A program made the translations under genes and the position numbers. Below the pieces are notes generated by a model. That model was not told the DNA's origin. It did no database searches and was given only the letters and a program-made list of their open reading frames with translations. Shown here one piece after another: positions 18,513 through 60,519 of a stretch of 64,000 nucleotides of DNA (positions are counted from its first letter, which is position 1; each line of letters begins with the position of its first letter). The stretch comes from a bacterium (lineage in GTDB: Bacteria > Patescibacteriota > Saccharimonadia > Saccharimonadales > SZUA-47): the NCBI GenBank assembly GCA_037138655.1, contig JBAXHY010000001.1:6221-70220 (forward strand), written 5' to 3'.

Positions 18513-19373
18513 TTAAACTTTCGGCTGCTTGGTTGTTTTTTGTTTTGTATTAACTACAGGTATATCTTTGATAGTATTTATATGCTTTTTGCCGTGTCTT
18601 AATAAGTATAAAACAAATGCAATAGTTCCACATGCAACAGCAAAACTTAGCAAATAACCGCCAAATAACTGCTGCACTGCCTTTAATACCGCATCTATTA
18701 ATCCGTTAGCTTTAACATCGGCTGAACCAGACTTTAATTTATCGGCCAATTTGGCTGGCAATAATATAATTGCACCCCAAAAGACAAAGAACCAAATACT
18801 CGTATGTAAAAATATTCTGCCGATTCTTCGTAGCTTTTGACCTTTTTCTGCAACATACCATTCTAACAATAAAAGAGCTACAAACACTACTGGACCAATA
18901 ATTTTTAATATCTTTAGCCGGTCATAAGCTTTTGGTAATTTATCTAAATTACCGTCTTTATTTAGTTCTATTGGAGTAGCAAAGTTTTTATCTATATCCG
19001 TGCCTACATCTACACCACTTGCCCTTAGTTTAGCCGGAAAGTCACTTATATCTACGACTGGTTGCGGGGTTCCAAGACGCATATACGTCGCAATATTATT
19101 AGATATTAGCTGTAATTTTTCTGCAACATAATCGGACGTTACAATTTTAGAAATTTTAGCTTTCATATCTGCTTTTTCAGCTGGGCTAGCATCTTTGGTG
19201 GCTTCTTCTGGAAGTAGTTTGGCAATCTCTACTGTTACCCCGGCATCCTTTAATGAAGGGACTAATTTACTTGGATTTAAAATTACACCGTCAATAAACC
19301 AAATATAAAATGTTGCTACCAAACTAAAGACCGCTAAAGTAATCAAAAAATGAGACAATATTTTTTTAAACAT
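18513..19373 (-). CDS. Hypothetical integral membrane protein
   Basis: Multiple predicted TM helices, no family recognised. Confidence 0.4.
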   Translation of the reverse strand: MFKKILSHFLITLAVFSLVATFYIWFIDGVILNPSKLVPSLKDAGVTVEIAKLLPEEATKDASPAEKADMKAKISKIVTSDYVAEKLQLISNNIATYMRLGTPQPVVDISDFPAKLRASGVDVGTDIDKNFATPIELNKDGNLDKLPKAYDRLKILKIIGPVVFVALLLLEWYVAEKGQKLRRIGRIFLHTSIWFFVFWGAIILLPAKLADKLKSGSADVKANGLIDAVLKAVQQLFGGYLLSFAVACGTIAFVLYLLRHGKKHINTIKDIPVVNTKQKTTKQPKV

Positions 19374-22080: not shown

Positions 22081-22626
22081 CTAAGCGGCAAATTCACGAG
22101 CAAATTGTAGCACGTACCCAAGCCTAAGTTCTTCGTACGTTTTTCGTCCTATAAACCTATAAACATCGCCGTCGTATTCACCTAAAACTGGTGGCATATT
22201 TAAAGACTCATTTACAGACAATATCGCTCCCGAATCAATTACATCAATCTGAACCGAATTGGCAGTAATTGGCTGCCCGTCCCTGACTCCTATTTTTATA
22301 AGAGGTGGTTTTTGAAGTGTTACCAAAAGTCTTGCTTTGACTGTTTTAATTGTAATTTCGCCGTTGTCTTCTTCTATAACAGTCAAGGGATTCGCAATGT
22401 TAGTTGGTGGTTCAAATTGATATTCCACAAGTCTGCTTGTTCCAATTTGCATCTTTAAATACGAAGTACCAAACTTGGTCATGCTAGCATCCAAATATTC
22501 TACTTCTATTCCCTGCAATAATCCCCAATATGGAATTTCGTTGCCTGCTCCTAAAGTTAACGCATCGGCAACAAACTGTAAGTCTGCTGCGATTGGGTGT
22601 TGTTCGTAAGAAATAAATTCACTCAT
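22081..22626 (-). CDS. Hypothetical protein
   Basis: 181 aa, no recognisable motif. Confidence 0.35.
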   Translation of the reverse strand: MSEFISYEQHPIAADLQFVADALTLGAGNEIPYWGLLQGIEVEYLDASMTKFGTSYLKMQIGTSRLVEYQFEPPTNIANPLTVIEEDNGEITIKTVKARLLVTLQKPPLIKIGVRDGQPITANSVQIDVIDSGAILSVNESLNMPPVLGEYDGDVYRFIGRKTYEELRLGYVLQFAREFAA

Positions 22627-22686: not shown

Positions 22687-25455
22687 ATGGGTGGGGTAAA
22701 AACAGATACGTTAGACAGTTATAGGTTAAGTACGGCCGATTCTTTGGTTCAATATCAGTCAAAAATAGACGGATTAACAGATTCCGAGGTACAACTGCGC
22801 CAAGAAAAATTTGGTGCTAATAAATTATACTCCTCAAAAAGTGACAATTTAGCAATTCGTTTTATAAGACAATTCAAAGATTTAATGTTGCTTCTACTTT
22901 TACTTTCGGCAGCTTTTTCTTTTGCTATTAACGATAAACGAACCTGCATTATTTTATTGGCGATAGTTTTTATTAATGCTTTAATCGGATTTTCGCAGGA
23001 ATATAAGGCCGAAAAAGTAATGGAATCCCTAGAAAAGCTAATAGTTCCTTTGGCTAAGGTTAAACGAGGCGGTAAATTAGGTGAACTACCTAGTGAGATG
23101 TTGATTCCTGGTGACATTATATATATAGAAGAAGGCGACAGCGTTCCTGCCGATGCCCGCGTAATAGAAGAAAACGAACTAAGTACCAACGACTTTGCGT
23201 TAACTGGCGAATCAAATCCTTCGCGTAAATTTCAACACGCAATAGAGGCTCCTGTGCCACTTTCGGACAGACACAACTTAGTATACATGGGAACAACCGT
23301 AGCGACCGGTGACGCTACCTGTTTGGTTATAGCAACTGGGGCAAATACCGAACTTGGAAGAATAGCCAGCTTAAGCAGTGGCACAAAATCCGACCCCTCA
23401 CCTTTGCAAAAAGAAATGACAATACTTGCTACTACTATAACTAAATATACCCTTGGTTTAAGCGCAATACTTGCAGCTATTGCTTGGCAAGCAGACTTTG
23501 GATTACGAGATTCGTTTATTTTTGCTATAGGTATATCTAGTGCAATGATACCCCAGGGCTTGCCTGCCGAAGTCAACACAGCACTTGCAAGCGCCGCGGG
23601 TAGGTTAGCTAAAGATCGTGCCTTAGTTAAAAAATTAAGTGCCGTAGAAACTTTAGGTGCTACAAGTGTTATTTTAACCGACAAAACCGGTACGCTTACT
23701 AAAAACGAAATGACCGTACAACAACTAATTATAGGTAAAACTGTATATAACGTCAGTGGTATTGGTTACGAAAATAACGGTAAAATAAATTCAGATAAAA
23801 ACATCGCCTTAAATAATACCGAACTACAAAACCTTAAAGACTTTTTTGTAACTGGAGCTTTTGCAAGTAACGCCAAGATTCACGAACCTGACGACACTCA
23901 CGATACCTGGTACTGCCTGGGCGACCCGACCGAAGGTGCGTTAATAACTTTAGCCAAAAAGTCTGGCATAATCATAGAACAAATAGAAAAAAGTCATAAA
24001 GAATTACGAGAACATCCATTTGATTCAGCAAGAAAAAGAATGTCCTCAATTAGGTTTTATGATGGAAACTTAACGGCATTCATGAAGGGTGCGCCTGAAC
24101 AAATACTAAAAGTATGTACCCATTATTGGGACGGTAAGTCAGTCCGAAAATTAACAGTACACGATATTCAAGATATTACCGCCCGAAACGATTTATGGGC
24201 CAGCGCCGCAATGCGTAACTTAGCCTTTGCAAAAAGAATATTTCCTGAAGACACAAAGCTAGAAAATTTAGACCTAGAAACTACAGAAAAAAATATGATT
24301 TTTATGGGCCTTGTAAGTATGATCGATCCACCCCGCGAGGAAGTACCAGAAGCCATGAAAGCAGCGCGGGCTGCAAATATACCAGTTAGTATAATAACTG
24401 GCGATAACGCTCTAACAGCCCGTGCAATAGCTGTTAGAGCAGGTTTGGCAGCTAATCCTAGCGAGCTAAAACTTATAGAAGGCGACAACCTACCAAACAT
24501 GAGCGACCAATCTGTTTTGGCGCTCATTGCTAATGGACAAGCAATATTTAGTAGAGTCGCTCCAGAAGATAAATTACGTATAGTAGAAATTGCAAAAAAA
24601 GCAGGTTTAATTGTGGCCGTAACTGGTGATGGAATTAATGACGCGCCAGCACTTAAAAGAGCTGACATTGGTGTAGCTATGGGAAAAACTGGAACAGATG
24701 TAGCCAAACAATCAGCCGATATTATTTTGTTGGATGATAGTTTTAACACGTTAGTAAATGCAGTACAAACAGGAAGAGTTATTTTTCAGAATATTAGAAA
24801 AGCCGCACTAAGCGCAATCACCAGTAATGGTGGCGAATTATTTGTTGTTTTGATTAGTTTAATTGCAAAAACTAAGTTTGGAATACCAATTGCTATTGGA
24901 GCTGTTCAAATTTTAGCAATCGATTTAATTGCAGAACTGTTCCCTATCGCTGCACTTGGCTGGGACCCCGCAGAAGGCGACTTAATGCACGAAAATCCGC
25001 GTAATTTAAATGATCATATATTAAACAAATCAAACCTATGGGACCTTGCCTGGAGCGGCGCGCTTATGGGCTCTTTTGGATACTTAAACTACATTTTATA
25101 TTTTGTACGTAACGATTTATCGCCTGCTCACTTTAGCAAGGCTACAGTAGCTTACGCTACAGCCACAACGCTTACCTACACTACTATTTGCTTGTGCCAA
25201 TTTGGTAGCATTTTTATACGTCGAATAAAGCCTGGACACAAATTACTAACTAGTTATTTATGGTCAAACAAAAAATTATTTATAGCTTTTGGAATATCTA
25301 TAACACTAATGATGTCGCTAATTTACTTACCGTTCATTCAGCCATATTTTGGTACCTATAACCTTGCATTGGGTGACTGGTTTTATGCAATATTAGCAGC
25401 TGTTTTATTTGTAACAATAAGACAAGGTGTGTTCAGACTAAAAAAACAATCCTAG
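22687..25455 (+). CDS. P-type cation-transporting ATPase (type II, Ca2+/Mg2+-like)
   Basis: DKTGTLT phosphorylation motif, TGDGINDAPALKRADIGVAMG hinge, PQGLPA in M4, 10 TM topology. Confidence 0.88.
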   Translation: MGGVKTDTLDSYRLSTADSLVQYQSKIDGLTDSEVQLRQEKFGANKLYSSKSDNLAIRFIRQFKDLMLLLLLLSAAFSFAINDKRTCIILLAIVFINALIGFSQEYKAEKVMESLEKLIVPLAKVKRGGKLGELPSEMLIPGDIIYIEEGDSVPADARVIEENELSTNDFALTGESNPSRKFQHAIEAPVPLSDRHNLVYMGTTVATGDATCLVIATGANTELGRIASLSSGTKSDPSPLQKEMTILATTITKYTLGLSAILAAIAWQADFGLRDSFIFAIGISSAMIPQGLPAEVNTALASAAGRLAKDRALVKKLSAVETLGATSVILTDKTGTLTKNEMTVQQLIIGKTVYNVSGIGYENNGKINSDKNIALNNTELQNLKDFFVTGAFASNAKIHEPDDTHDTWYCLGDPTEGALITLAKKSGIIIEQIEKSHKELREHPFDSARKRMSSIRFYDGNLTAFMKGAPEQILKVCTHYWDGKSVRKLTVHDIQDITARNDLWASAAMRNLAFAKRIFPEDTKLENLDLETTEKNMIFMGLVSMIDPPREEVPEAMKAARAANIPVSIITGDNALTARAIAVRAGLAANPSELKLIEGDNLPNMSDQSVLALIANGQAIFSRVAPEDKLRIVEIAKKAGLIVAVTGDGINDAPALKRADIGVAMGKTGTDVAKQSADIILLDDSFNTLVNAVQTGRVIFQNIRKAALSAITSNGGELFVVLISLIAKTKFGIPIAIGAVQILAIDLIAELFPIAALGWDPAEGDLMHENPRNLNDHILNKSNLWDLAWSGALMGSFGYLNYILYFVRNDLSPAHFSKATVAYATATTLTYTTICLCQFGSIFIRRIKPGHKLLTSYLWSNKKLFIAFGISITLMMSLIYLPFIQPYFGTYNLALGDWFYAILAAVLFVTIRQGVFRLKKQS

Positions 25456-26300
25456 TTTTTCTTAGACAAAATGCTGCGCTCAACTACGGTTCTAACAACT
25501 TGTCTTTTTTGGGGTTTAACCTTTTTTTCGAACACTATCAATGGGTCATTTTTAATTTGTAATGCCGTCCAATTATAGGAATCAACTGCCGTATGAAGCG
25601 GAACGGCTATTTTTTTAGGTATATAAATAAAGCCCTTATTGGCATCTGTTTGCCACTGCGCATATCTTAATAACTGGGCGTGCACAAAGTCAGCAAACAT
25701 CTTTGGTTTTGCCCTTGCTTCTTCTTCTGATAAGTTTTTTAGTCCGTAAACTTTAATATCATTAACAGGAAAATAACATCGCCCCATTTCGCTGTCGTCG
25801 GTAAGATCCCTTAAAAAATTAATATACTGCATAGCTCTGCCCTGCATTCGTACTGGTTCTAGCGCTTCTTCTGGAAGATTTAATATGCGTGCTACAAAAA
25901 GCCCAACAACTTCTGCCGTTCCGTATACGTATTCTAGGGTGTCTTTTAATGAGCGGTACTGGTGTTTTTGAATATCCCATCTCATACTTTTTAAAAACGC
26001 GTCTACCCATGCAGGATCACAACCGTGACGATGAACAATGTAAGCAATATTCGATAACGCTTTTTCACTTACAGAATCGTCTAATGGTGAAGTCACAAAA
26101 CCGTTTGCAAGTTCTGATTTTATCGTTGTCCATCTAACTTCGATATATTCAAATTTAGCTAAATTACTAGGTGTTTGGTCTACAAAATTATGTACTAAAT
26201 TTATAAATGAATACAACTTAAATACGTCATCACGCATTCCTTTAGGAAAAAATCTACTACTCCAGTAGTAAGTTAACCTTCCGTTTTTAAATATATTCAT
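25452..26300 (-). CDS. Squalene/phytoene synthase family protein (trans-isoprenyl diphosphate head-to-head condensing enzyme; CrtB/HpnD-like)
   Basis: Motifs YVYGTAEVVG (YxxxxAxxVG), GRAMQYINFLRDLTDD (GxAxQxxNIxRD), GRCYFP (GRxYLP). Confidence 0.7.
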   Translation of the reverse strand: MNIFKNGRLTYYWSSRFFPKGMRDDVFKLYSFINLVHNFVDQTPSNLAKFEYIEVRWTTIKSELANGFVTSPLDDSVSEKALSNIAYIVHRHGCDPAWVDAFLKSMRWDIQKHQYRSLKDTLEYVYGTAEVVGLFVARILNLPEEALEPVRMQGRAMQYINFLRDLTDDSEMGRCYFPVNDIKVYGLKNLSEEEARAKPKMFADFVHAQLLRYAQWQTDANKGFIYIPKKIAVPLHTAVDSYNWTALQIKNDPLIVFEKKVKPQKRQVVRTVVERSILSKKN

Positions 26301-26351
26301 GTTTATAGTATGACAAAAAAAGTGTTCGTATACTGCAGTAAAAACTACAAA

Positions 26352-27440
26352 CTACTTACTTCTTCCTAGTAAACTAGTTACAAGCAGATCTAAAAATTCT
26401 ATGCCACCCTCAGAAAAAACTCCAATACAACCTTTTAATGATTCTTTTGCCTTTGAAACATGTTCAATAGCCTTAGTCTGGGCAAAGTTTAACGCGCCTG
26501 TTTCTGTAAAAATTTCTTTACATCTAATAAATTCAATATACGTAAGTTTTTCGTTACCTAACATTTGAATCAAAAAGTTTTTGTCGCCGCTGTCGGACCT
26601 ATTCAAGGCTTCTACGGCAAGTACAGTCCGCTTGCCTTCACGAATATCATCCATAGGGCTCTTACCTGCTTCTTGCTCGCTAGCAAAAGTTCCTAATATG
26701 TCATCTGTAATCTGAAAAGCTCTACCTGCGTGCATCGAATACTCATGTACAGATTCAATAGTTTTTTTACTTGCACCAGCCAATGTCATGCCAAATTGCA
26801 GTGGGTTTAAAAAGGTGTACTGTGCGGTCTTCCATTCTAATACTTGATCCACAGCTCGCTCACTAACTTCGTCTACAACCTCATTAAATATGTCGTTTAT
26901 TTGTCCGTGACCCGTAACAATTATTGCATCGTTTAGTAACGACAGTGCCCTTAATTTAAGGTGTGCATCTGTATTTAATGAAGCAATCAGACCCTGCGCA
27001 TAATGAGAACCTATAAGTGCAGCATTTATAGCAATAGACTCACCAAAATGACCAGAATCGCCTGCTAACTGATTTTGCTTATGATAGTTTTCTAGCAATA
27101 CATGGGCGGACGGACCACCCCGGCGAATTTTGGACTTATCCATAATGTCATCTAATACCAAAATATAGGCGTGCGTCATTTCGATTGCACTTGCCGCTTG
27201 AAGTATTATTTTTTTATTACTTCCACCGCACATTTCGTAGCCAACAATCGTTAAAGCACCTCGTATGCGCTTGCCACCTCTTGCCAGAACCTGAGTATAG
27301 GCGTCTACACCTACTGCCGAATATTCGGTAAATTTTTGTACTGTCTGTTCTTTTAAATTTTTGCTATGAAAAATAATTTCATCGTCGATTTCATTTTTAT
27401 AATTTATTAATCTGGATGTATGTTCGCTTAACTTACTCAT
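26352..27440 (-). CDS. Polyprenyl diphosphate synthase (GGPP-synthase-like trans-prenyltransferase)
   Basis: FARM LVLDDIMDKSKIRRG, second Asp-rich motif FQITDDILG, GKxxGxDIREGKRT. Confidence 0.8.
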   Translation of the reverse strand: MSKLSEHTSRLINYKNEIDDEIIFHSKNLKEQTVQKFTEYSAVGVDAYTQVLARGGKRIRGALTIVGYEMCGGSNKKIILQAASAIEMTHAYILVLDDIMDKSKIRRGGPSAHVLLENYHKQNQLAGDSGHFGESIAINAALIGSHYAQGLIASLNTDAHLKLRALSLLNDAIIVTGHGQINDIFNEVVDEVSERAVDQVLEWKTAQYTFLNPLQFGMTLAGASKKTIESVHEYSMHAGRAFQITDDILGTFASEQEAGKSPMDDIREGKRTVLAVEALNRSDSGDKNFLIQMLGNEKLTYIEFIRCKEIFTETGALNFAQTKAIEHVSKAKESLKGCIGVFSEGGIEFLDLLVTSLLGRSK

Positions 27441-27445
27441 TACGG

Positions 27446-28024
27446 TTAAAGCCCTAGTGACTTAGCAATAAGTTTGTTAAATGTACTAATATCTTGACTG
27501 TCGTTTTCTATAAAAATATCGCAGCGATCTTTTACTCCAGCCAGGCTAAGAGTTGCGTGATCTCCACTGTGATCCATTTCTAAAACTTCATCGGCAATAA
27601 ACTTTTCGTAAGAATGATTGTTTTCTAAATCACCCCTACCTCTGTCTTTTGACGTAATTCGATTAAATCTAACTTTAGAATCCGCGTCTAACCAAATCAT
27701 TTTACCTTTTAGCTCGTGTAAATGATCTGCTTCGCCTGGGTTTCTTAAACTACCAGTAATAAGCCCTGCATATGCTACATCTCCGCCTTCGGATTTGTAA
27801 GTTTCTATGGCTTTATCTACAAGTACGCCAAGCCCGCTTTGTCGTCTCCACTCTGCACTAATATCGCGTAAAATATCTCGCTCTACCCCGAGCCCTCTTT
27901 TTCTGGCTTCTTCACGCAAAAGATCGCTGCTGCTTACAAACAAAAAATTATGTTCTTCGACCAAAAACTGAGCAAGAGAATCCTTACCACTGCCGTTTGT
28001 ACCCGAAAGTCCTAGTAAAATCAT
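27446..28024 (-). CDS. P-loop kinase of the phosphomevalonate-kinase(animal-type)/dNMP-kinase-like family
   Basis: Walker A LSGTNGSGKDS (the unusual GKxxSGKD form), C-terminal IFIENDS; 192 aa; 5-nt gap to the prenyl synthase gene. Confidence 0.45.
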   Translation of the reverse strand: MILLGLSGTNGSGKDSLAQFLVEEHNFLFVSSSDLLREEARKRGLGVERDILRDISAEWRRQSGLGVLVDKAIETYKSEGGDVAYAGLITGSLRNPGEADHLHELKGKMIWLDADSKVRFNRITSKDRGRGDLENNHSYEKFIADEVLEMDHSGDHATLSLAGVKDRCDIFIENDSQDISTFNKLIAKSLGL

Positions 28025-28085: not shown

Positions 28086-29204
28086 TTACTTTAGGTAATC
28101 CATCAATTTACGACTGTCTTTGTGCTTGCGCAGTTTTGCCAAAGCCTTAGCTTCAATCTGTCTAATACGTTCACGCGTTACGCTAAATTCTTGGCCTACT
28201 TCTTCTAGGGTGTGACTCTTGCCGTCTTCTAGTCCAAATCTTAGTTTAAGAATTTTTTGTTCGCGGTCAGTAAGTCCAGAAAGTAACTGTTTTACGTGTT
28301 CTTTAAGCAACTGATTAGTAGCTGATTCTTCTGGACTAATTGTATCTTCGTCCTCAATAAAGTCACCCAATACACTGTCTTCGTCGTCGTCACGAACGCT
28401 TGCGTCTAACGAGCTAATGTCCTGTTTGATTTTCATTATGTGCTCTACTTTATCAACGTCAATTTCCATCTCTTTGGCAATTTCATCGTTTGTAGGTTCA
28501 CGATTGAGTTCTTGAGTTAAACGTCGCTGAGTACGTAGTAACTTGTTAATAGTTTCAACCATGTGAACAGGTATACGAATAGTACGAGCTTGGTCAGCTA
28601 TAGCACGTGTAATAGCTTGGCGAATCCACCATGTTGCGTATGTACTAAACTTAAAGCCTTTGTCTGGGTCAAATTTTTCTACTGCACGCAATAGTCCAGT
28701 GTTACCTTCTTGAATAAGGTCAAGAAGATCAAGGCCACGACCTACGTATCTTTTTGCAATACTTACTACTAAACGCATATTAGCTTCGGCCATCTGGTCC
28801 TTAGCTTCACGATCACCAGCTACAACACGCTGAGCTAGTGCAAGTTCTTCGTCTGATTTTAATAGTGGAATCTTACCGATTTCACGCAAATACAAACGTA
28901 CAGAGTCATCTGCGATGTCGTCTAGGTACATTTTTTCGTCTATAACGATTTCTTCACCGTCTTCGGCTGTCCATTCGTCGCTAAGATCTTCCGGCTTTGG
29001 TTCGGTTACTCCTGTAATATCAATCTTAAGTTCTGCTAGTTCACCGTATAAGACATCCAAAATGTCTACGTTTTCAGGGGTGTCCGCAATAGCTGCATTT
29101 ATATCTCGTTGATCTATTTTGCCGCTTTTTTTAGCTTTTTCTATAAGATCATTTTTTGCATTTTCTAAAGATTCTGTAGGCTTATTTTTTGGTTCGTCTG
29201 CCAC
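28086..29204 (-). CDS. rpoD: RNA polymerase primary sigma factor (sigma-70)
   Basis: Regions 2-4 including [39 protein letters not shown] and C-terminal HTH. Confidence 0.92.
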
Positions 29205-29225: not shown

Positions 29226-30992
29226 TTAAGAGTGTAATCTATACACTTTACTTAGCTCATCGAGCTCTTTTACTTTTATTAGCGTTTTTGCTGTGTCTGA
29301 ATCGTCACTGCTACTAAGGCTTTCTATGAGTTGTCGTTTTTTGTTTTTTATGTACTCTGTTACCAGTCGAGAAACCAAGTGTTCGGTTTGATACGAAAGC
29401 TCGGATTCCTCTGTTGTTTGGTAGAGTTCTTCAGATAGAAGTAACAACATTTTAACATAATCTGCTATGTTTCTCAAGGAATTAAGAGAAGATGGTTCGT
29501 CTGTAAGTTCATAATCTAAATTTTCTTGCAAAAAATCACTTAAATCTTGAGCGCTCTTTTCTACAAAAACATCTTTAGGTAATCCACTTAGTATCTGTCT
29601 TAGTTCTGGAAACCTTAGCGTAATTGCAAGTAAGTGTTGCCCCATAATTTTTTGATCGCGAAGTTCGCTAGCAAGTTCTACTTCATTTTTTAAAGCTTTT
29701 AGCCGTCGCACAGGGGCAACTTCTGTTTGATTAAGTTTTTGCCTAAGCGCTTCATTGCTAATATCAATTTTTTTAGCTAACACCCCTATGTAATGATCAA
29801 GCTCTACAGGATCTTTAAGTCTTCTTACTAAGCGCAGAACCACATCTGTAAATTTACGCTTTCCTACTGCACTGGTTATATCCAGCTGAGATTCATATCT
29901 GTCCATAAGCCAGTCAATAACATACTGCGGCTTATTGATCGCTTGTTGCCAAGCTGATACATCTTTTTGTATTAATTCGTCGGGGTCTTTACCGGCTGGA
30001 ATTGTTATCATCTGCAATGTAACGCCTACATCGTTGGCTAAATCTATTGCCCGTTCTGCTGCGTTTTGACCCGCACTATCTTGGTCAAAACATAGTCTAA
30101 TGTCTGACGTGAATCGTTTTAAGGCTTTAAGGTGTTGCGCTGTCATAGCTGTTCCGGCGGTTGCGACTACGTTAGTAACCCCAACTTGATGACTAGCAAT
30201 AACATCTAAGTTCCCTTCTACTATTACTACGAATCCTAGCTTTCTTATTGATTCTTTTGCTAAATGTAGGCCGTACGCCTGACGACCTTTGTCATACAAA
30301 AGTGTTGCGGGTGTATTAATATATTTTGGTGCGTTAGGATCTGAATCTAATTGCCTAGCCGTAAATCCTACTACTGCGCCCTGTTGATCGCAAAGAGGCA
30401 CCATTAATCTTCCCCTAAACATATCGCTAGTTCCTGCAGAACGCTCAGACACTAATCCTGCTTTTTTTATTTCGTCTAATGTATAAGATTTTCCTAATAA
30501 ATACGAAAGAAGTTCTTTTCCGCCCGTAGGACTATATCCAAGTCTAAATTGCAAAATTGTCTCTTTGCTAAAAGCTCGTTTTTTACGAGTATATTCTAGC
30601 GCGCTCATATTTTTTGTTAACTGAACTTGGTAAAAACGTGCTGCCGTTTCAAGTACTGCATGCATTCGTTCTTTGGTTTTTGAATTGTCTACACCGGTAC
30701 CACCAGTTTTATATTGAGTTAAATCTACGCCCGCCTTGCGCGACAAAAGTTCTAGCGCCCCCTTAAAATCAAGCCCTTCGACTTCCATTATAAAACCAAA
30801 TACATCTCCCCCTTTGCCACTACTAAAATCATGCCATATCTGTTTTTCTGGGCTAACGACAAAACTAGGAGATTTTTCGTTAGCAAAAGGACTTAGGCCC
30901 TTAAAGTTACGTCCGGCACGTTTTAATTGAACGTATTCTGCAACGACATCTTCTATGGCAAGGCGATCTTTTATATCTGCAACGGCATCCAT
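29226..30992 (-). CDS. dnaG: DNA primase DnaG (zinc-binding-domain ligands all substituted)
   Basis: Toprim and primase core; dnaG-rpoD order; N-terminal ZBD-like segment without the Cys/His ligands. Confidence 0.85.
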   Translation of the reverse strand: MDAVADIKDRLAIEDVVAEYVQLKRAGRNFKGLSPFANEKSPSFVVSPEKQIWHDFSSGKGGDVFGFIMEVEGLDFKGALELLSRKAGVDLTQYKTGGTGVDNSKTKERMHAVLETAARFYQVQLTKNMSALEYTRKKRAFSKETILQFRLGYSPTGGKELLSYLLGKSYTLDEIKKAGLVSERSAGTSDMFRGRLMVPLCDQQGAVVGFTARQLDSDPNAPKYINTPATLLYDKGRQAYGLHLAKESIRKLGFVVIVEGNLDVIASHQVGVTNVVATAGTAMTAQHLKALKRFTSDIRLCFDQDSAGQNAAERAIDLANDVGVTLQMITIPAGKDPDELIQKDVSAWQQAINKPQYVIDWLMDRYESQLDITSAVGKRKFTDVVLRLVRRLKDPVELDHYIGVLAKKIDISNEALRQKLNQTEVAPVRRLKALKNEVELASELRDQKIMGQHLLAITLRFPELRQILSGLPKDVFVEKSAQDLSDFLQENLDYELTDEPSSLNSLRNIADYVKMLLLLSEELYQTTEESELSYQTEHLVSRLVTEYIKNKKRQLIESLSSSDDSDTAKTLIKVKELDELSKVYRLHS

Positions 30993-38375: not shown

Positions 38376-38406
38376 AACAGCTCCGTTAAGGGGCTGTTTT
38401 TGTTTT
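38376..38406. terminator. Bidirectional intrinsic terminator
   Basis: cagctcc-gttaa-ggggctg hairpin followed by TTTTTGTTTT; the stop codon of the convergent photolyase-like gene lies in the loop. Confidence 0.75.
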
Positions 38407-39894
38407 GGTATTCAAAAAGTCTGCTGCGCGGTATCCTATAATACGTCGCCTATCTTCGTTCATGCGTTTTAACATAACTACAGTGGTGTTCATGTGAGTA
38501 TTTTTAGACAATGATTCGCTGTGTTTTTCTATAAAACCCCAATACAAACCGTCCCAAATATCGCACCAATCGTCTTTTTCATAATGGCTCATCTGCAAAA
38601 TATAATTACTACCACTAATATTGGGCTTTACTGTCATACCGCCCCCTTCACCGTCAGAAAACTGACTCATTCCGTAAACACCAGGAACTACTGCCCAATC
38701 GTAAGCATCAATAGTCATTTCCATAAACCATTGATAAACTTCATTTGGATTTATCTGTGATAAAAACATAATGTTGCCTATTATCATCAGGCGTTCAACA
38801 TGATGTAAATAACTACGCGCCTGCACCTTTTTAATAACGTCGTCAACTGGCGGAATTCCTGTAGTACCTTCATACCAATCCTGCGTTAGACTTCGTTTAT
38901 GCTCGTAATTATTGCTAGACCTTAAAGACACTCCTTGGGTTTGATACACCGCTCTGGTGTATTCTCGCCATCCCAATACTTGCCTTACAAATGATTCAAG
39001 ACTTGGAAGATTTACTGGTGATTTTTCGTGTCTTTGAATCGCCAAATCTACAACCTGTTTTGGAGTAAGCAAGCCTGTGTTTAATGCAGAAGAAATTGCA
39101 CTATGGTATGACCAAGGCGCTGTTCCGTCTATAGCTTCTTGGTACAATCCAAAATCTTCTAACCTATTTTTTAAAAATTCATTTAACCAAACCTCGGCTT
39201 CTTCATGGTTTGTTGCCCAGTTAAATTCCGAATCTACGCCTGGGTTATTAGGAAAGTTTTTTGCCACATAATGTCTGGCTTCTTCAACAAATTCATTACT
39301 TCCGTAAACTTCAAAAGTCGGTAATGTATGTTCTTTTGGTAGGCGTTTTCGGCTTTCTTGATCAAAGCTCCATTTTCCTCCGACTGGCTTATAGTTATCG
39401 TCAATTAATACATTAAACCGTTCGCGTTGCCACTGATAAAAATCCAAAAAAGGTTTGTTTTTTGATGAGCTTAAATAGTCTGTAACTTCTTGTTTTGTTA
39501 AATAAAAATTTGGAGTGTCTAAAAATTGAAGTTTTGGAATTTCTGGGATAGTATTAGCCGCTACCTGAAGTCTTCTTTGAAGTACATCGTCTACTACGTC
39601 AAAAACTGTTGCGCTCTCATAACCATGCAATCGCTGCAATATGTCACCACTATCTACAATATCTTTAAATTCGATATATTCTACTTCGTACCCTGCTGGC
39701 CATAAAACTTCTTTTATATAGCGCCGCATACTTGCCCTATGCAATATAAGTTTTTGCTTATGAAAAAATACTGGGTACTTTTGGTCTGTGCCAAAATACA
39801 ATGGATCTTCGATTAAAAATATAGTGCCAACGCCTTGCGGTAGATACTCTTTTTTAAATAATTGGTGAGGATAAATTAAATGTGCTGATTTCAT
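38386..39894 (-). CDS. Cryptochrome/photolyase-family protein of the FeS-BCP / COG3046 (bacterial (6-4) photolyase PhrB/CryB-like) type, apparently without the Fe-S cysteine ligands
   Basis: N-terminal pattern (IYPHQLF...FFHKQKLILHRASMRRYIKE) typical of COG3046. About 500 aa. Only one Cys in the whole protein. Confidence 0.6.
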   Translation of the reverse strand: MKSAHLIYPHQLFKKEYLPQGVGTIFLIEDPLYFGTDQKYPVFFHKQKLILHRASMRRYIKEVLWPAGYEVEYIEFKDIVDSGDILQRLHGYESATVFDVVDDVLQRRLQVAANTIPEIPKLQFLDTPNFYLTKQEVTDYLSSSKNKPFLDFYQWQRERFNVLIDDNYKPVGGKWSFDQESRKRLPKEHTLPTFEVYGSNEFVEEARHYVAKNFPNNPGVDSEFNWATNHEEAEVWLNEFLKNRLEDFGLYQEAIDGTAPWSYHSAISSALNTGLLTPKQVVDLAIQRHEKSPVNLPSLESFVRQVLGWREYTRAVYQTQGVSLRSSNNYEHKRSLTQDWYEGTTGIPPVDDVIKKVQARSYLHHVERLMIIGNIMFLSQINPNEVYQWFMEMTIDAYDWAVVPGVYGMSQFSDGEGGGMTVKPNISGSNYILQMSHYEKDDWCDIWDGLYWGFIEKHSESLSKNTHMNTTVVMLKRMNEDRRRIIGYRAADFLNTKTKTAP

Positions 39895-41592: not shown

Positions 41593-41765
41593 ATTAGTTC
41601 TATTCTATCTTATTAACTCAAAAACATACACGTCCAACTTCTTAAAGACAATAATATTGACTTACTTGGCTGCGGGATTTTACATAAAACTTACCTCTGT
41701 TTTAATGGTATACTTGGCTAATGGACAGATTACTAAATAAAATTGGTAGCACTGTAAGGGGCTGG

Positions 41766-42350
41766 ATGATTATTCCGGCAAAAGTATTAAATAGTCTATC
41801 TGGTGGACTCATAAAACCTAACCACATTACACTTGTTTCGTTACTTGGTCATATTTTAGTAATTTGGGCACTTTGGTACAGTCGACCTATATTAGCAGCT
41901 GTTTTATTGGCATTTTTTGGACTTATGGACAGCCTTGATGGTGCGTTAGCAAGATTGCAAAAAACAGCCTCGTTAAATGGAATGCTATACGACGCATCCA
42001 GCGATAGAGCTAAAGAAGTTCTTATATATGTAGGGCTAACTCAGTACGTTTTTGTTCATACAAACGACTTCATTTGGTTACCTGCGGCAGTTTTAGGTGG
42101 ATCGCTTGTTGTTAGTTACATAAAAGCCAAGGGTGAAATGGCACTTGCTAGTGTTAAAAAACACGATAAACAAATGCTTAACAAAATTTTTGCAGATGGA
42201 ATAGCCAGATACGAAGTCAGAATGGCAATTGTTGTTTTTGGCTTACTGGCTGGGCAAATAATTTTATCGCTATGGTTGTTGCTGGTACTTGTTGGATACA
42301 CTGCCCTGCAAAGAATTGTTCGCATATCTAGGGCTTTAAATAATGTATAA
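41766..42350 (+). CDS. CDP-alcohol phosphatidyltransferase family protein
   Basis: Signature DSLDGALARLQKTASLNGMLYDASSDR (D-x2-DG-x2-AR-...-G-x3-D-x3-D). Start moved to ATG 41766 (RBS AAGGGG), because the upstream ATG 41721 overlaps the -10 box. Confidence 0.8.
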   Translation: MIIPAKVLNSLSGGLIKPNHITLVSLLGHILVIWALWYSRPILAAVLLAFFGLMDSLDGALARLQKTASLNGMLYDASSDRAKEVLIYVGLTQYVFVHTNDFIWLPAAVLGGSLVVSYIKAKGEMALASVKKHDKQMLNKIFADGIARYEVRMAIVVFGLLAGQIILSLWLLLVLVGYTALQRIVRISRALNNV

Positions 42351-42996
42351 GGTCGACCTTCATACTCATTCTGTTGCTTCACCAGACGGAGGAATATCAC
42401 CAGAACAATATGCAAAAATATTAGAATCCGAAAAACTAGATTATATTGCAATCACCGACCACGACAGAATAGATTTTGCTTTAGGACTACAAAAAGCTCT
42501 TGGTGACCGTATTATCGTTGGGCAAGAAATAACTACTTCAGAAGGAGAGCTAATCGGTCTTTTTTTAAAAAGTCGCATTACTCCTAATTTATCTGCCCTA
42601 GAAACAGCGCATGCCATAAAAGATCAAGGTGGCTTAGTATACGTACCTCACCCGTTCGAGATTGTCCGAAAAGGCATTCAAATAGACAACCTCCAAAAAA
42701 TTACCGAACTTGTTGATATTATCGAAATTCATAATGGTCGAGCCCTTAATAACAAGCACTCATTAAAAGCAGCAACATGGGCAAAACTAAACAACAAATC
42801 TGGTGCATCAAGCAGCGACGCTCATGGATATAAAGGCTTGGGTTATAGCTACAGCGTCCTTAAAGAAGTCCCGGCAAGAGGCTCATTGGTTAGTAGCCTT
42901 AATATGACCGCATTGGCTCACAGACGCGCACCAGTCACTACATTTTTGTACCCCAAACTTAACCGCTTAGGCAAAAAAATAGGGATTAAAAAATAA
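42343..42996 (+). CDS. PHP-domain (polymerase/histidinol phosphatase-like) metal-dependent phosphoesterase
   Basis: N-terminal DLHTHS...AITDHD PHP motifs; overlaps the upstream gene by 8 nt and the downstream gene by the ATGA arrangement. Confidence 0.75.
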   Translation: MYKVDLHTHSVASPDGGISPEQYAKILESEKLDYIAITDHDRIDFALGLQKALGDRIIVGQEITTSEGELIGLFLKSRITPNLSALETAHAIKDQGGLVYVPHPFEIVRKGIQIDNLQKITELVDIIEIHNGRALNNKHSLKAATWAKLNNKSGASSSDAHGYKGLGYSYSVLKEVPARGSLVSSLNMTALAHRRAPVTTFLYPKLNRLGKKIGIKK

Positions 42997-43553
42997 TGTT
43001 AAATCATTTATTGTTTGGACTTTGGTATTTTTTACCTGCTGGTTTTGCTAATGCGGCTCCTGTTTTTGCTAAAAAAATTCCCCTGTTAAATAAGCTTGAT
43101 ATGCCAATTGATTGTCATAAATCTTTTAAAGGAAAACGTATTTTTGGTGACCATAAAACTGTAAGAGGTTTTGTTGCGGGCACACTAATAGGATCTGTCA
43201 CCGGACTGTTGCAATACGTTGCCTACTTTCATTTTGGATGGTTTCAGAATTTTAGTTTAGTTATATACACAAGTGTCTGGCAATGCCTTTTATTGGGCGC
43301 TCTGCTTGGTTTTGGTGCATTATTTGGCGATGCAGTTAAAAGCTTTTTTAAAAGACAATTTTCTGTTCCTTCCGGAAAAGCTTGGTTTCCTTTTGACCAA
43401 ATAGACTACATTATTGGGGGCTTACTGTTTGGTTCTATATTAATAGACTTGCCTCATTCAGAATACATCTGGATTGTACTGGTTTGGTTTTTAATACACC
43501 CATTGGCAACATTTATAGGATGGCTAATGGGATTAAAAGACTCGCCAATTTAA
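42996..43553 (+). CDS. CDP-archaeol synthase (CarS, DUF46)-like CTP:lipid-phosphate cytidylyltransferase
   Basis: 185 aa, 5 predicted TM helices. N-terminal FLPAGFANAAPV...FGDHKTVRGF and C-terminal GDAVKSFFKRQ...FDQIDYIIGG match my recollection of archaeal CarS signatures, but no database comparison could be run. The bacterial CdsA C-terminal PGHGG/DRxDS signature is absent. Confidence 0.6.
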   Translation: MLNHLLFGLWYFLPAGFANAAPVFAKKIPLLNKLDMPIDCHKSFKGKRIFGDHKTVRGFVAGTLIGSVTGLLQYVAYFHFGWFQNFSLVIYTSVWQCLLLGALLGFGALFGDAVKSFFKRQFSVPSGKAWFPFDQIDYIIGGLLFGSILIDLPHSEYIWIVLVWFLIHPLATFIGWLMGLKDSPI

Positions 43554-50971: not shown

Positions 50972-51050
50972 ACATTCCCCTTGTGCTTTTTTTGTTGTAT
51001 ACTACTCACTATAAACTATAATCTATAAACTATCGATATTGGGGGTGGGA

Positions 51051-51533
51051 ATGTTCGGACAAAGAGACACAAGCAGTACAGACGATGCGAATCAACAAAG
51101 TAGCACTCCAGTTTTGCCAATGCCTGACTATAATTCTCAGATGCCGGCGAGCCTGCCCGTAACTACAGCTCCGTCAGTTCCAAATTTTGACATACCAGCA
51201 CCAGAACAATTAAGCTCACCTGTTACTAACAGCCCGCAACCACCTGTTCAGACAAGCCCAGAAGTCACATCAGATATTACGCCCGAAGATTTAGTAAGTA
51301 TGAAGCAAGAGGCATTGCAACACCTTCAGCCACTAGTAGACACCCTAGAACAATCACCAGAAGAAGAATTTAGGACAATAATGATGATGATTCAGGCAAC
51401 TGACGATAAAAAAATGTTAAAAAAAGCACTTGAATCAGCTAAAAAAATTAAAGACGATAAAATTCGTGCGCAAGCAATGCTAGATGTAATTAACGAGATT
51501 AATTACTTTACTCAAACTTCTCAGGCAGAATAA
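51051..51533 (+). CDS. Hypothetical Pro/Ser/Gln-rich protein
   Basis: Strong RBS GGGGGTGGG before ATG 51051; low-complexity N-terminal half, helical C-terminal half. Confidence 0.4.
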   Translation: MFGQRDTSSTDDANQQSSTPVLPMPDYNSQMPASLPVTTAPSVPNFDIPAPEQLSSPVTNSPQPPVQTSPEVTSDITPEDLVSMKQEALQHLQPLVDTLEQSPEEEFRTIMMMIQATDDKKMLKKALESAKKIKDDKIRAQAMLDVINEINYFTQTSQAE

Positions 51534-51538
51534 ATATA

Positions 51539-52036
51539 TTAGTTTTTACTAATTAGAATTTTTCGGTAAGAACAAAAACCAATAATCGTGACTAGGGCAA
51601 ACAACCCTGCCGACAAGCCAGGGCCAGTATTTGGCACATTTGTAGCTGCCGACACTGCCTTTTTATTAATAGCGTCTGTCTGACTTGGCGAAACACCTTG
51701 AGCCGGAGTTATATAGCCACTAATACTAGTTTCTACAACCGGTACAGAAACTTTTGCTGTTGGTTGTTCTACTTTTATGACATTACCGTCGTTTTTAGTT
51801 GCGTTATCGGTGTCTGCTACTAGTACGGTTGCTACCGAGCTTGATTTTTTGTTGTTTAGTTTTCTGTAGACCCATCTACCCCCAGAAAAAAGTCCAACAA
51901 ATACTGCAACAGTAATAAATAAGCTAGTAAACGCTAATAGCCAAGCAACGCTGGTACTTTGCTTATTTTGTGTAGAATAAAATTCCTGAAGTTCAGGAAT
52001 TTGAGTTGTGGTATTTTTTTTACTAAATATCGACAT
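51539..52036 (-). CDS. Hypothetical surface protein with sortase-like sorting signal
   Basis: N-terminal TM/signal, C-terminal VPNTG followed by a hydrophobic stretch and a basic tail (YRK). Confidence 0.4.
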   Translation of the reverse strand: MSIFSKKNTTTQIPELQEFYSTQNKQSTSVAWLLAFTSLFITVAVFVGLFSGGRWVYRKLNNKKSSSVATVLVADTDNATKNDGNVIKVEQPTAKVSVPVVETSISGYITPAQGVSPSQTDAINKKAVSAATNVPNTGPGLSAGLFALVTIIGFCSYRKILISKN

Positions 52037-52276
52037 GACTTTAATATCTCCAATTAATGCCTATCATTTAAATATACAATACTACATTGATACCATTTTT
52101 GCAAATCTGGCTACAAACCACACTCTCTTGTACTAAAAAGGGGTCTTGTTTCCCAAGCCATGAATGGTCATTGTTTATGACCTTCCGTACCTTTTTGGAC
52201 AATTGAGGGTGGCTTAGCGCTGCAATTCCCTCATGACACAAAAACTTTATGTTATAGGGGAATTGCGGTGGGATGG

Positions 52277-53317
52277 TTAGGATACGAATCGTAAAAGGCC
52301 CAACCTGCGCAACAGGCTATCGAGTCTTGCAATAGCTCCATCATCGCCCTTATAGGCGCCTATTACGTCTGCTACCATTCGTTCAAATCCCTTACTGTCG
52401 CTGGTATTGTCAATAGCCATAGTAACTACAGTAAAATCATATCTGTCGGCAGACTCAGCTGCCCCAGAACCGCATTTTACCTGCACGCGAGTTACTGCAT
52501 CGCCCCTGTTAATAACAACATCGTGGGCTACTCTAGTGCCAATATTAGGTGGCATTCCTGCTCGAGGCTTGTCTTCGCGTTCATTAGCAAGACGAACAAA
52601 ATTATTAGAATCTTCGCCTTCGTTTTGCCAAAGTTTAAATTGTGCACTTGCCATAACGGCAAATTCAAACAATTTTCCGTCACCTACTCCGTCATCTTTT
52701 TGTTCGCCAGGAAGAGGACGTTTTTTGCGTTGCTCTATTACTCGCTCTAAAGCCTTTACTCTCCACGACTCCTCACTATCAGCTACCCTGGTACGTTCGC
52801 CTGTTCTTGTTTGAGAAATTTTAACTAGTTGTACGCCCCTTCTAGAGAGCTCGTCCTTAGTTGTACTAATTCCCATAAAAGCATCTACTTTTTGAGCTCG
52901 TGTGCTTAATGGATCATTACAAACTGAACTTTGTAACGACAGTACGAAACGCAATAAACTGTTGCTATATTCATATTCCACAACTTGTTCAGGGCTTGCT
53001 CCCAAAGCAAGAACAATGTCGGACATCATCGATACAGCCTCTAGCTTTTCGCTAGGATTAGCTACAATACCAGCCATACTAACAAGGTTAGCGTTTAACC
53101 TAGCAGACAACTCACCTGCTGTTTCGCCTAGCTTAGGTTCTAGTAATGTAGTTGCCGCAAGGTTAAGTAAAGGCGCTGCGTCTTCAGGATTAAGTTCATA
53201 ACAGGGTCCCATTCGGTGATATTCTGCCGCGGCTTGTTCGCGACTCATTAGTTGCACAGCCTCAGGTTGTGCTTCTTGAATAATTTCTAGTGGACTTGGT
53301 TGAATCGTATCTGTCAT
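52277..53317 (-). CDS. Hypothetical protein, locally GC-rich
   Basis: 346 aa ORF whose composition is visibly more G+C rich than its neighbours; no family recognised. Confidence 0.4.
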   Translation of the reverse strand: MTDTIQPSPLEIIQEAQPEAVQLMSREQAAAEYHRMGPCYELNPEDAAPLLNLAATTLLEPKLGETAGELSARLNANLVSMAGIVANPSEKLEAVSMMSDIVLALGASPEQVVEYEYSNSLLRFVLSLQSSVCNDPLSTRAQKVDAFMGISTTKDELSRRGVQLVKISQTRTGERTRVADSEESWRVKALERVIEQRKKRPLPGEQKDDGVGDGKLFEFAVMASAQFKLWQNEGEDSNNFVRLANEREDKPRAGMPPNIGTRVAHDVVINRGDAVTRVQVKCGSGAAESADRYDFTVVTMAIDNTSDSKGFERMVADVIGAYKGDDGAIARLDSLLRRLGLLRFVS

Positions 53318-57550: not shown

Positions 57551-58045
57551 TTAAGCTGTTATTTCTTGGTGAACCCAAAATAGCAATTTTACAAAATCAT
57601 CGGCTGTGTTCCATAAACGCTCCATTGTTCTTGGAGCATATTCACAACCAGAATTGGTGACTAGACTATTAGAACCAAACTGAAAAACTACGCTGGGAAA
57701 TTCTGAATTTAGTTCTTTTGTACTAATAGCTGCATTTTTATATAAATTAATGGTCGCTACTTTGGTTAAATTTTTTAGGTCAGAATTAACCGCTAAAATC
57801 GTAGAATCCCTAAGAGCTAACGTCAAAGCTGTACTTTTTATGCCCGTATCTTCGTCTGTATCGGTGCATACTAATGTGTCGCTAAAATGTTTAGTTACTA
57901 ATTTATGGTTCAGAACTAGATAGTTTGCTAGCCTAAGTGTTCTTAAGGCTATTGTATGAGGAATATCAGCAGGCGTATTTATCGCATCGACGTTATAAAT
58001 GTCCACAAAAGGTTCGCCTTCTAAAAACGGCTGGTCAATACTCAT
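57551..58045 (-). CDS. Hypothetical protein
   Basis: 164 aa; start overlaps the murE-like stop by 4 nt. Confidence 0.35.
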   Translation of the reverse strand: MSIDQPFLEGEPFVDIYNVDAINTPADIPHTIALRTLRLANYLVLNHKLVTKHFSDTLVCTDTDEDTGIKSTALTLALRDSTILAVNSDLKNLTKVATINLYKNAAISTKELNSEFPSVVFQFGSNSLVTNSGCEYAPRTMERLWNTADDFVKLLFWVHQEITA

Positions 58046-59511: not shown

Positions 59512-60369
59512 TTATCTAGTCCTAAAAATAAATCTTCTTGCTTGTTCTTTAACAATTTTAGCTATGCCTTCAGTGTCGTCAACGTGCATACCTAAGTATT
59601 TATTTTGTAATTCTTCTTGGCTTAAACCTTGCAATTCTGCATCGTCAATTTGTGTAAATTCTACAGAATCGGCTTTTTGTTCTGGAATATTAGTCTGCTC
59701 GGGCTTAACTACCGGTGGATATGTTCCGTAACTTTCCTCATTATCTTTAGTGTCTGTAATTTTTGGTTTTTCTGGTTCAGCGCTTTTGGCAATATCTTCT
59801 GTTACTGGAGTTGGTTCGGGTACTAGCATTTCGACTAATTTTTTACCCAAATTTGCTATTGGTTCTTTAAACGACACAACTTCTGGTTGTTTATTTAAGA
59901 TGTTAAGCTGAAGTTGTGCGTGTTGGCTTTTAGCAAATTTTTGAAAATCTGACAATAGCTTAACAACGTCAGAACCGCTTTGTTTTGCAGCGTATTTTTC
60001 TGAATCACGAACTGTCTGTACTAAGTTTGTCCAATTAGACTCGTCGCCCGATGATACTTTTTTAGACATTTCGTCATAAAGTTCTTCGATGCTTACCAAT
60101 GGCTTACCTTCGGCATTTAAATATTCTCTTACTTTTCTTTGTTTTGCAGATTTTGGAGGCTCTAGTATTGGTTCTTTAGTAGTTAGGTCTTTGGCATCTT
60201 CTGGCTTTACAGAAACTATATCGTTCGCCTTGTCAGAAAGCGTATGGTCTGGCAAAAGCAAGTGTTCGGCTGGTACACCTAATTCAACTAACATAGTGTC
60301 TAGTTGTTCTGGCGTTGCAGTCATTGCGTCTAATGTTTGTGTTGCTGGAACTGATTCGTTGTTCATATT
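59512..60369 (-). CDS. Hypothetical acidic protein
   Basis: Start moved to ATG 60369 (RBS AGGA); Glu/Pro/Lys-rich and likely disordered. Confidence 0.4.
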   Translation of the reverse strand, partial: NMNNESVPATQTLDAMTATPEQLDTMLVELGVPAEHLLLPDHTLSDKANDIVSVKPEDAKDLTTKEPILEPPKSAKQRKVREYLNAEGKPLVSIEELYDEMSKKVSSGDESNWTNLVQTVRDSEKYAAKQSGSDVVKLLSDFQKFAKSQHAQLQLNILNKQPEVVSFKEPIANLGKKLVEMLVPEPTPVTEDIAKSAEPEKPKITDTKDNEESYGTYPPVVKPEQTNIPEQKADSVEFTQIDDAELQGLSQEELQNKYLGMHVDDTEGIAKIVKEQARRFIFRTR

Positions 60370-60519
60370 TTTGTCCTGTTTATTTTTGCTTAAAAACTTA
60401 TTTATTTTATGTTTTAATAGGCTTATAATAGCAAAATACTTATGTTTTGTCAATATGTACTGAAGCTACTTTGTAGTTTACACAAATGAGTTTTTTACAA
60501 TATTTGGTAAACTAATACA

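Follow-up and report, generated by a model that had tools for sequence, protein, structure and literature searches.

Carotenoid genes have been described in Patescibacteria before: genomes from Lake Baikal, including one of Saccharibacteria, carry the bacterioruberin/carotenoid genes lyeJ, crtD and cruF (PMC9948471). In freshwater classes of the candidate phyla radiation (CPR) other than Gracilibacteria, Saccharimonadia included, only a C10-C20 isoprenoid module was reported (PMC9166423), and for rhodopsin-bearing Saccharibacteria the report concerns only the absence of blh (PMC9296517). Our literature searches for phytoene synthase, squalene or crtI in Saccharibacteria found no relevant paper; the Baikal study surfaced under Patescibacteria and phytoene. 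NCBI and JGI annotation already names such proteins phytoene synthase and phytoene desaturase. Outside this group, YisP of Bacillus subtilis is described in PMC10148934 (citing Feng et al. 2014) as a farnesyl diphosphate phosphatase with the squalene/phytoene synthase (SQS_PSY) fold, which acts on a single prenyl diphosphate and carries out no head-to-head condensation. The subject of the present analysis is a 64,000-nucleotide stretch of a contig from a freshwater Saccharibacterium of the Saccharimonadales (JBAXHY010000001.1, positions 6,221 to 70,220; hereafter the window), in which a gene of the SQS_PSY family, an ortholog of the phytoene synthase gene crtB, follows a gene for an isoprenyl diphosphate synthase (IDS) downstream of dnaG-rpoD. 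On balance, we favor the view that the CrtB protein of the window is catalytically compromised or repurposed, and that it may be kept for another role in a truncated carotenoid pathway, beside a housekeeping IDS. An earlier reading of this DNA from its letters alone (the sequence-only reading) had held that such genomes are not known for this chemistry; that statement is outdated, since carotenoid genes in Patescibacteria have been published and the databases already annotate them.

The window CrtB is a member of the SQS_PSY superfamily, matching PF00494 over residues 10-266 of 282 with 130 bits (cut-off 26). The AlphaFold2 model (predicted local distance difference test 90.5, predicted template-modeling score 0.88) has the all-alpha class I isoprenoid synthase fold, and Foldseek gave template-modeling (TM) scores of 0.79-0.83 to 8is8, 5iys and 2zco. 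The motifs YVYGTAEVVG, GRAMQYINFLRD and GRCYFP are present. The protein scored below the cut-off of every equivalog model tried in NCBIfam, namely NF042419, NF045921, NF045686 (CrtB), TIGR03465 (HpnD) and TIGR03464 (HpnC), with 74.4, 67.1, 50.1, 82.4 and 62.1 bits against cut-offs of 480, 500, 550, 278.6 and 250.45, respectively. The family assignment and the three motifs quoted in the sequence-only reading stand; what that reading missed is the state of the first Asp-rich motif.

This motif reads FINLVHNFVD in the window, where the family has FVR[VI][AV]D[DN]xVD, so that Arg34 is replaced by Asn (R34N, codon aat) and Asp37 by His (D37H, codon cat). In the alignment to 5iys the window segment lvHNfvD lies opposite raDDliD, with H37 at the position of the first Asp. 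The first DxxxD motif with its preceding Arg, as expected of a competent head-to-head synthase, is absent from the window protein. By register with the sequence of CrtM, we take H37 to correspond to D48 of that enzyme and N34 to R45. The metal-binding Asp residues of CrtM are D48 and D52 (PMC13304436). The rest of the catalytic set of the window CrtB is kept (Y126, Q158, N161, R164, D165, D169, R174 and Y176) and D41 is also present; the second Asp-rich motif and the Q/N/Y residues, counterparts of CrtM Q165, N168, D172, D176 and Y129, are in place. The sequence-only reading had named loss of the Asp-rich motifs as a condition under which its proposal would fail, and the replacement of R34 and D37 in the first motif touches on that condition; the second motif is intact. 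Within the family the altered positions are highly conserved: R34, D37, D41, N161, D165 and D169 are kept in 164 of 194 non-redundant members and in 33 of the 33 crtI-linked members scored. At 9 of 64 positions conserved at 95% or more the window CrtB departs from the conserved residue, and seven of these nine departures are conservative. Position 38 was considered as a further catalytic loss (D38N) and rejected; it is naturally D or N among crtI-linked homologs.

The two replacements are shared by a sister metagenome-assembled genome (MAG), L007, labeled uncultured Candidatus Saccharimonas sp., whose locus is 95-97% identical to the window in DNA sequence; a figure of 98% was also obtained for a locus with the Ca. 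Saccharimonas label. L007 has N34 and H37 as in the window, but retains D38. Since this independent MAG carries both residues, a sequencing or assembly error was rejected, and N34 and H37 are real and older than the split of the two strains. Between window and L007, crtB differs by 6 nonsynonymous and 17 synonymous changes, with a synonymous divergence (dS) of 0.106 and a ratio of nonsynonymous to synonymous divergence (dN/dS) of 0.085. About 80% of changes are expected to be nonsynonymous under neutrality, and 6 of 23 were observed (binomial test, P=5e-8). Because its dN/dS is 0.085, crtB is maintained and not drifting. For the other genes of the locus the ratio is 0.059 (kinase), 0.041 (ATPase), 0.037 (IDS) and 0.018 (rpoD). 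Comparisons of the window with L002 and with L005 were uninformative, as dS is saturated.

In a neighbor-joining tree the window CrtB falls within a clade A (P0002-P0015, 71-79% identical), which is mostly canonical, with single catalytic changes in P0014 (D37N), P0003 (R34Q/N161Y) and P0015 (N161H). Adjoining it is a clade B of 25 sequences with longer branches (262-310 amino acids, about 56% mutual identity), in which the Asp-rich motifs are largely eroded: all members lack N161, 84% lack D37, and the losses of D41 and of D169 each reach 64%. A core of D25, W98, Y124, Y126, G127, E130, Q153, R155, A156, Y176, Y213, Q217 and P253 is conserved throughout clade B. Its members are P0016-P0026, P0031, P0036, P0038, P0064, P0076, P0082, P0091, P0097, P0098 and P0110-P0114, and the clade includes loci L008 and L012. 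On their residue patterns, the clade-B homologs are candidate pseudoenzymes. The segment DGFVD of P0019 was rejected as a degenerate motif; D37 and D41 are intact in it and only N161 is missing. In annotation, homologs of this kind should not be labeled 'phytoene synthase' by default.

The genes of the block, from its upstream anchor to its downstream end, are as follows.

29226-30992, minus strand: dnaG (DNA primase), an open reading frame (ORF) of 588 amino acids with Pfam Zn_ribbon_DnaG, DNAG_N, Toprim and DnaB_bind; upstream anchor of the block.
28086-29204, minus strand: rpoD (primary sigma-70 factor), an ORF of 372 amino acids with Pfam Sigma70_r1_2, r2, r3 and r4.
27446-28024, minus strand: P-loop protein of the nucleoside monophosphate kinase fold (UPF0200/AdkA-like), 192 amino acids; Pfam AAA_17 (3e-13) and AAA_18.
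26352-27440, minus strand: short-chain trans-IDS (CrtE/IdsA-like, in the range of farnesyl diphosphate (FPP) to geranylgeranyl diphosphate (GGPP)), 362 amino acids; PF00348 (7.8e-54).
26301-26351, minus strand: IDS-crtB spacer of 51 nt, at the position of a crtI of about 1.47 kb in relatives.
25452-26300, minus strand: SQS_PSY protein (CrtB ortholog), 282 amino acids; PF00494 (1.7e-37); first catalytic motif altered.
22687-25455, plus strand: convergent P-type cation ATPase, 922 amino acids; Pfam Cation_ATPase_N, E1-E2_ATPase and Cation_ATPase_C; it closes the block on its downstream side, at the place taken in relatives by a gene with a lycopene-cyclase domain.

The three co-directional ORFs thus lie where the sequence-only reading had placed them, downstream of dnaG-rpoD, and the domain searches it had proposed for IDS and SQS_PSY gave the PF00348 and PF00494 matches listed. 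On the minus strand the gaps are 61 nt (rpoD-kinase), 5 nt (kinase-IDS) and 51 nt (IDS-SQS_PSY gene), and a simple scan found no terminator-like site on this strand from rpoD through the end of the SQS_PSY gene. The stops of crtB and of the convergent ATPase gene overlap by 4 nt (25452-25455), with zero intergenic space; L002 and L003 show an identical overlap. An NCBI MAG encodes a protein identical to the SQS_PSY protein of the window, annotated 'squalene/phytoene synthase family protein', and relatives of the window rpoD are 80-95% identical.

Homologs in species-representative genomes come mostly from MAGs of Saccharibacteria, Saccharimonadales or Patescibacteria, and the order dnaG-rpoD-(kinase)-IDS-SQS_PSY is present in 34 of 49 Saccharibacteria-type loci. 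In many relatives a gene of about 490 amino acids lies exactly in the gap between the IDS and SQS_PSY genes and encodes a phytoene desaturase of the CrtI family. CrtI-family ORFs of 485-497 amino acids occupy this place in L016, L020, L022, L027, L028, L041, L046, L050, L074, L077, L082 and L086. The desaturase of relatives scores 462 bits with TIGR02734 (cut-off 238) and 607 with the CrtID equivalog (cut-off 640). In a genome scan of 80 related loci (L007-L086), crtI adjoins the SQS_PSY gene in 34, non-CPR bacteria and archaea among them, either between it and the IDS gene or beside it; 21 of these loci are of Saccharibacteria type and 13 belong to other phyla. A gene with a lycopene-cyclase domain (PF18916) follows directly 3' of the SQS_PSY gene in 15 loci. 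At the site dnaG-rpoD-kinase-IDS...polA, at least 14 loci have crtI-crtB-cyclase, and a full carotenoid island is found at 8001-13031 of L088 (JGI contig Ga0620607_000005, 881 kb, Saccharibacteria). Its order is dnaG-rpoD-kinase-IDS-(NUDIX)-crtI-second amine oxidase (CrtD-like)-Caroten_synth (PF04240, CruF family)-SQS_PSY-Lycopene_cyc, with polA further on. Because relatives carry crtI and cyclase genes around the SQS_PSY gene at the same site, the window gene is an ortholog of crtB, and the same gene order identifies the IDS as the CrtE-like enzyme that feeds a C40 carotenoid island. A squalene route by HpnC/HpnD/HpnE was rejected; the desaturase of relatives passes TIGR02734 and reaches only 57 against a cut-off of 283 with HpnE, and lycopene-cyclase genes are present.

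Distant SQS_PSY relatives at about 40-45% identity are found in Spirochaetaceae, Chloroflexota and some archaea. The Spirochaetaceae proteins are the closest non-CPR relatives of Saccharibacterial CrtB (39-45% identity), and the Spirochaetaceae/Spirochaetia MAGs concerned (L042-L044, L048-L052, L055-L069 and L073), many of them from soda-lake sediments, have the order crtI-crtB-IDS. Lateral transfer of crtB between Spirochaetaceae and Saccharibacteria is possible.

In the window itself tblastn gave no match to CrtI (E<=1e-3), the CrtD-like oxidase, the CruF-family protein or two cyclases, and a Pfam map of its long (>=100 amino acids) non-nested ORFs, built from precomputed matches and three direct scans, showed no further isoprenoid or carotenoid gene. 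No clade A or clade B locus has a crtI near crtB. We also asked how often contigs of at least 20 kb carry CrtI as well as CrtB, matching the longest contigs of CrtI and CrtB clusters by their lengths among the top 120 listed CrtI clusters: 8 of 18 do so in the intact clades and none of 9, one of them of 555 kb, in clades A and B (Fisher's exact test, P=0.026). This co-residence test suggests that the clade A/B lineage has lost desaturation.

The IDS appears to be an intact short-chain trans-prenyltransferase. It matches PF00348 with 183 bits, as a trans-isoprenyl diphosphate synthase does, and its best match in the PDB is the GGPP synthase of Corynebacterium glutamicum (3lk5, 3.6e-37). The first Asp-rich motif (FARM) is DDIMD, intact as the sequence-only reading had it. 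The second, DDILG, had been called modified, and here that reading does not hold: DDxxG is the norm of the subfamily, common to every related locus, and 3lk5 has DDLLG. Inspection of the residues upstream of FARM, which had been recommended, showed a Tyr at -5 and no FARM insertion. By the chain-length rule, this combination agrees with a chain of at most C20. The product may be C15 or C20, and the C40-type neighbors in relatives argue for GGPP. The protein is below all NCBIfam equivalog cut-offs (NF041003 GGPP_syn, 158.8 against 500; NF045685 CrtE, 79.9 against 460), and its top NCBIfam match, an encapsulin cargo polyprenyl transferase, was rejected at 180 against a cut-off of 450. The IDS gene stays intact and under strong constraint also at loci whose CrtB is degenerate (L005, L008 and L078). 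It probably has a use beyond pigments, most simply the priming of undecaprenyl diphosphate synthesis. At 9288-10816 of L012, a clade-B genome, the kinase gene is followed directly by a degenerate crtB with no IDS gene between them; because of this arrangement, IDS is not always retained at the site.

The kinase gene between rpoD and IDS is conserved in many loci. The sequence-only reading had counted it as a member of the isoprenoid cluster, and nothing we found links it to isoprenoids. The window protein reaches the cut-offs of generic P-loop models only; it has weak matches to (d)CMP, UMP-CMP and adenylate kinases (36.9 bits with the NCBIfam archaeal (d)CMP kinase, cut-off 102) and no match to known isoprenoid-kinase families such as phosphomevalonate or isopentenyl-phosphate kinase. 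Searched against the PDB, a profile of the family matched the Sulfolobus proteins 3lw7 (AdkA-like) and 3h0k (SSO1041) over the full length (E~4e-18), and the conserved kinase is closest to these archaeal UPF0200/AdkA-like proteins, not to bacterial Cmk or Adk. An identification as cytidylate kinase, raised by a neighbor in L088 that matches PF02224, was not upheld; the two proteins are 18% identical and align poorly, and tblastn with the L088 neighbor found no other locus. The kinase is a syntenic neighbor of nucleotide-kinase fold for which no tie to isoprenoid metabolism could be detected, and its substrate, as judged from these family matches, is probably a nucleotide.

The following scheme would account for these results. 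An ancestral island downstream of dnaG-rpoD in environmental Saccharimonadales would have encoded IDS as the GGPP supplier, CrtI, CrtB and a lycopene-cyclase-domain protein, to which some genomes would add CrtD-like and CruF-like genes; the upstream kinase would be a nucleotide-kinase-like neighbor outside the pathway. The lineage of the window would have lost the desaturase and the cyclase from the locus and from the surrounding 64 kb. A working C40 pigment pathway seems unlikely there. The intact IDS, under strong purifying selection, would continue to supply a short-chain prenyl diphosphate, for instance as primer of the undecaprenyl carrier lipid. With N34 and H37 in a CrtM-like fold, canonical Mg2+-dependent head-to-head condensation would be abolished or strongly reduced. 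Because purifying selection persists, the most probable reason for the retention of CrtB is some residual or altered role, which might be binding or hydrolysis of prenyl diphosphates or low-level formation of phytoene.

Several observations weigh against a compromised or repurposed CrtB. The second motif (RDLTDD) is intact together with Q158, N161, Y126 and R174; His and Asn may bind metals or phosphate, so that activity of an HxxxD motif is conceivable; and an enzyme that is still active would equally be expected to show a dN/dS of 0.085. Canonical residues are found in most clade-A relatives, P0002 (79% identical) among them, though they have no adjacent crtI, and CrtB may have a role independent of crtI in this clade. 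In L089 crtI lies 11 kb away from crtB and so need not adjoin it, the absence of partner genes covers the 64-kb window while crtI or a cyclase could sit elsewhere in the genome, the co-residence test is indirect, and the CrtB tree was built by neighbor joining only. The conserved second motif, the low dN/dS and the canonical clade-A relatives would equally suit a working GGPP synthase joined to an active head-to-head synthase, whose product, phytoene (C40) or dehydrosqualene/squalene (C30), would be a membrane lipid or would be handed on to enzymes encoded elsewhere, and so would the full length and high-confidence CrtM-like fold of the window CrtB, its GRxYFP motif and the intact IDS beside it. 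We nevertheless regard such an activity as unlikely. R34 and D37 are both replaced here and are kept in every crtI-linked homolog scored, the equivalent of D37 in CrtM, D48, is a metal ligand, and the equivalog scores of 74-82 bits compare with cut-offs of 250-550. There is no desaturase, cyclase or HpnE-type gene in the 64 kb, and no CrtB of clade A or B shares a contig with a CrtI of the top 120 listed clusters.

It is improbable, in our estimation, that crtB is a recently inactivated and functionless relic, heading for deletion and not yet disrupted. The missing partner genes, the two lost key residues, the nine departures among 64 conserved positions and the reductive nature of Saccharibacterial genomes would all agree with such a relic, but the window gene has neither frameshifts nor stop codons, and L007, at a dS of about 0.1, keeps the crtB ORF with the excess of synonymous changes described above (6 against 17, P=5e-8). 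The conservative character of seven of the nine departures also speaks against it, as do the clade-B homologs, which are more degenerate and persist at full length at about 56% identity, an outcome unexpected of neutral DNA in a deletion-biased genome. A wider proposal covers clades A and B together, where the CrtB scaffold is kept over tens of percent divergence while Mg2+/diphosphate-binding residues erode, in a lineage apparently without desaturation. Such a pattern might mark a pseudoenzyme or a neo-functionalized protein, a possibility that we put forward tentatively. The protein might then, for instance, serve the IDS as a regulator or as a partner that binds prenyl diphosphate, or be a prenyl diphosphate phosphatase of the YisP kind, and the window CrtB, with R34N and D37H and otherwise intact, would represent an early step of the transition. 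For the window protein itself we retain the view given at the outset, of a CrtB that is compromised or repurposed and kept for another role.

The CarS-like operon that the sequence-only reading had placed at 41.7-43.6 kb is present as a three-gene unit (41721-43553, plus strand) for a CDP-alcohol phosphatidyltransferase (PF01066, 1.3e-10), a PHP-domain protein (PF02811) and a CarS-like protein (PF01864, 2.1e-32), the last with a weaker overlapping match to CTP_transf_1 (CdsA type). This unit could provide an archaeal-type or CdsA-replacing step of CDP-lipid activation. The link that had been drawn between it and the IDS is conceptual only, a conjecture by which IDS, alone or joined by the CrtB-like protein, would feed a pathway of isoprenoid ether lipids or other prenyl lipids together with this operon. 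The IDS could make GGPP, and the CarS-like and CDP-OH_P_transf proteins are encoded 15 kb from it. Against this, the two loci are not adjacent, the IDS of relatives is tied to carotenoid genes and not to lipid genes, and the CTP_transf_1 overlap offers an ordinary alternative for the CarS-like protein, CDP-diacylglycerol synthesis. Beyond the CarS-like and CDP-OH_P_transf proteins, no Pfam family of prenyl-glycerol (ether) lipid synthesis was found among the long window ORFs scanned or annotated. We consider a joint pathway very improbable.

Elsewhere in the window, a photolyase-related protein is encoded at 38386-39894 on the minus strand (DPRP, PF04244, 5.6e-40, with FAD_binding_7), with a homolog near the locus in L004. 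The gene suggests a light-exposed habitat, consistent with an ancestral photoprotective pigment pathway. Conserved ORFs with no Pfam match lie at 22081-22626 (minus), 18513-19373 (minus), 51039-53317, 57551-58045 (minus) and 59512-60453 (minus), with sizes of 181, 286, 164, 165, 346, 164 and 313 amino acids; the 181-residue ORF is syntenic in relatives, between the ATPase gene and polA.

If the favored reading is true, an episymbiotic, genome-reduced bacterium would have dismantled a pigment pathway stepwise at one conserved chromosomal site, and related genomes would display the series from full island to crtI-crtB-cyclase, to crtB alone, and to crtB with eroded catalytic residues. They would also offer a set of natural CrtB variants that selection maintains with no canonical active site. 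Many environmental Saccharimonadales encode the CrtE-CrtI-CrtB-cyclase set, a pigment operon widespread among free-living relatives of the window organism. This set, like the full island of L088, is relevant to how rhodopsin-bearing Saccharibacteria come by retinal precursors.

Compared with known systems, the locus stands nearest to crtE-crtI-crtB-crtY operons, whose CrtB is a 15-cis-phytoene synthase. The family (PF00494) and the fold (TM about 0.8) are the same, and orthologs of the window gene are flanked by CrtI and cyclase genes with a GGPP synthase-like IDS ahead; the window differs in having neither crtI nor cyclase, in N34/H37, and in CrtB equivalog scores far below cut-off. The best structural and sequence matches of the protein are CrtM, the dehydrosqualene synthase of Staphylococcus aureus (2zco, 3w7f), and 5iys of Enterococcus hirae. 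Unlike CrtM, the window CrtB has His at the equivalent of D48 and Asn at that of R45. What the proteins have in common is the second DxxxD motif, along with residues equivalent to Q165, N168 and Y129 (residue roles, PMC13304436). CrtM pairs with CrtN in a C30 pathway, whereas relatives of the window gene have CrtI and cyclase genes of the C40 type as neighbors. To YisP (3we9) the likeness is one of fold only (TMt 0.75), with no YisP match at E<=0.01 in a phmmer search with the window CrtB, and a phosphatase activity like that of YisP is a conjecture by analogy. The IDS resembles actinobacterial short-chain trans-IDS (C. glutamicum GGPP synthase 3lk5 and Mycobacterium tuberculosis FPP synthase 8f8f, its best PDB matches), with which it shares the FARM DDxxD with no insertion and DDxxG; identity is only about 30-35%, and all NCBIfam equivalog cut-offs are missed. 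As in the Patescibacteria of Lake Baikal, L088 has CrtD-like and CruF-family (PF04240) genes beside crtB and crtI; the window lineage has none of these and marks the reduced extreme of the series. By origin the cluster belongs to isoprenoid metabolism, but it is a reduced carotenoid operon and not an unheard-of capability, and what is mildly novel is the selected retention of catalytically eroded CrtB homologs in a lineage of Saccharimonadales.

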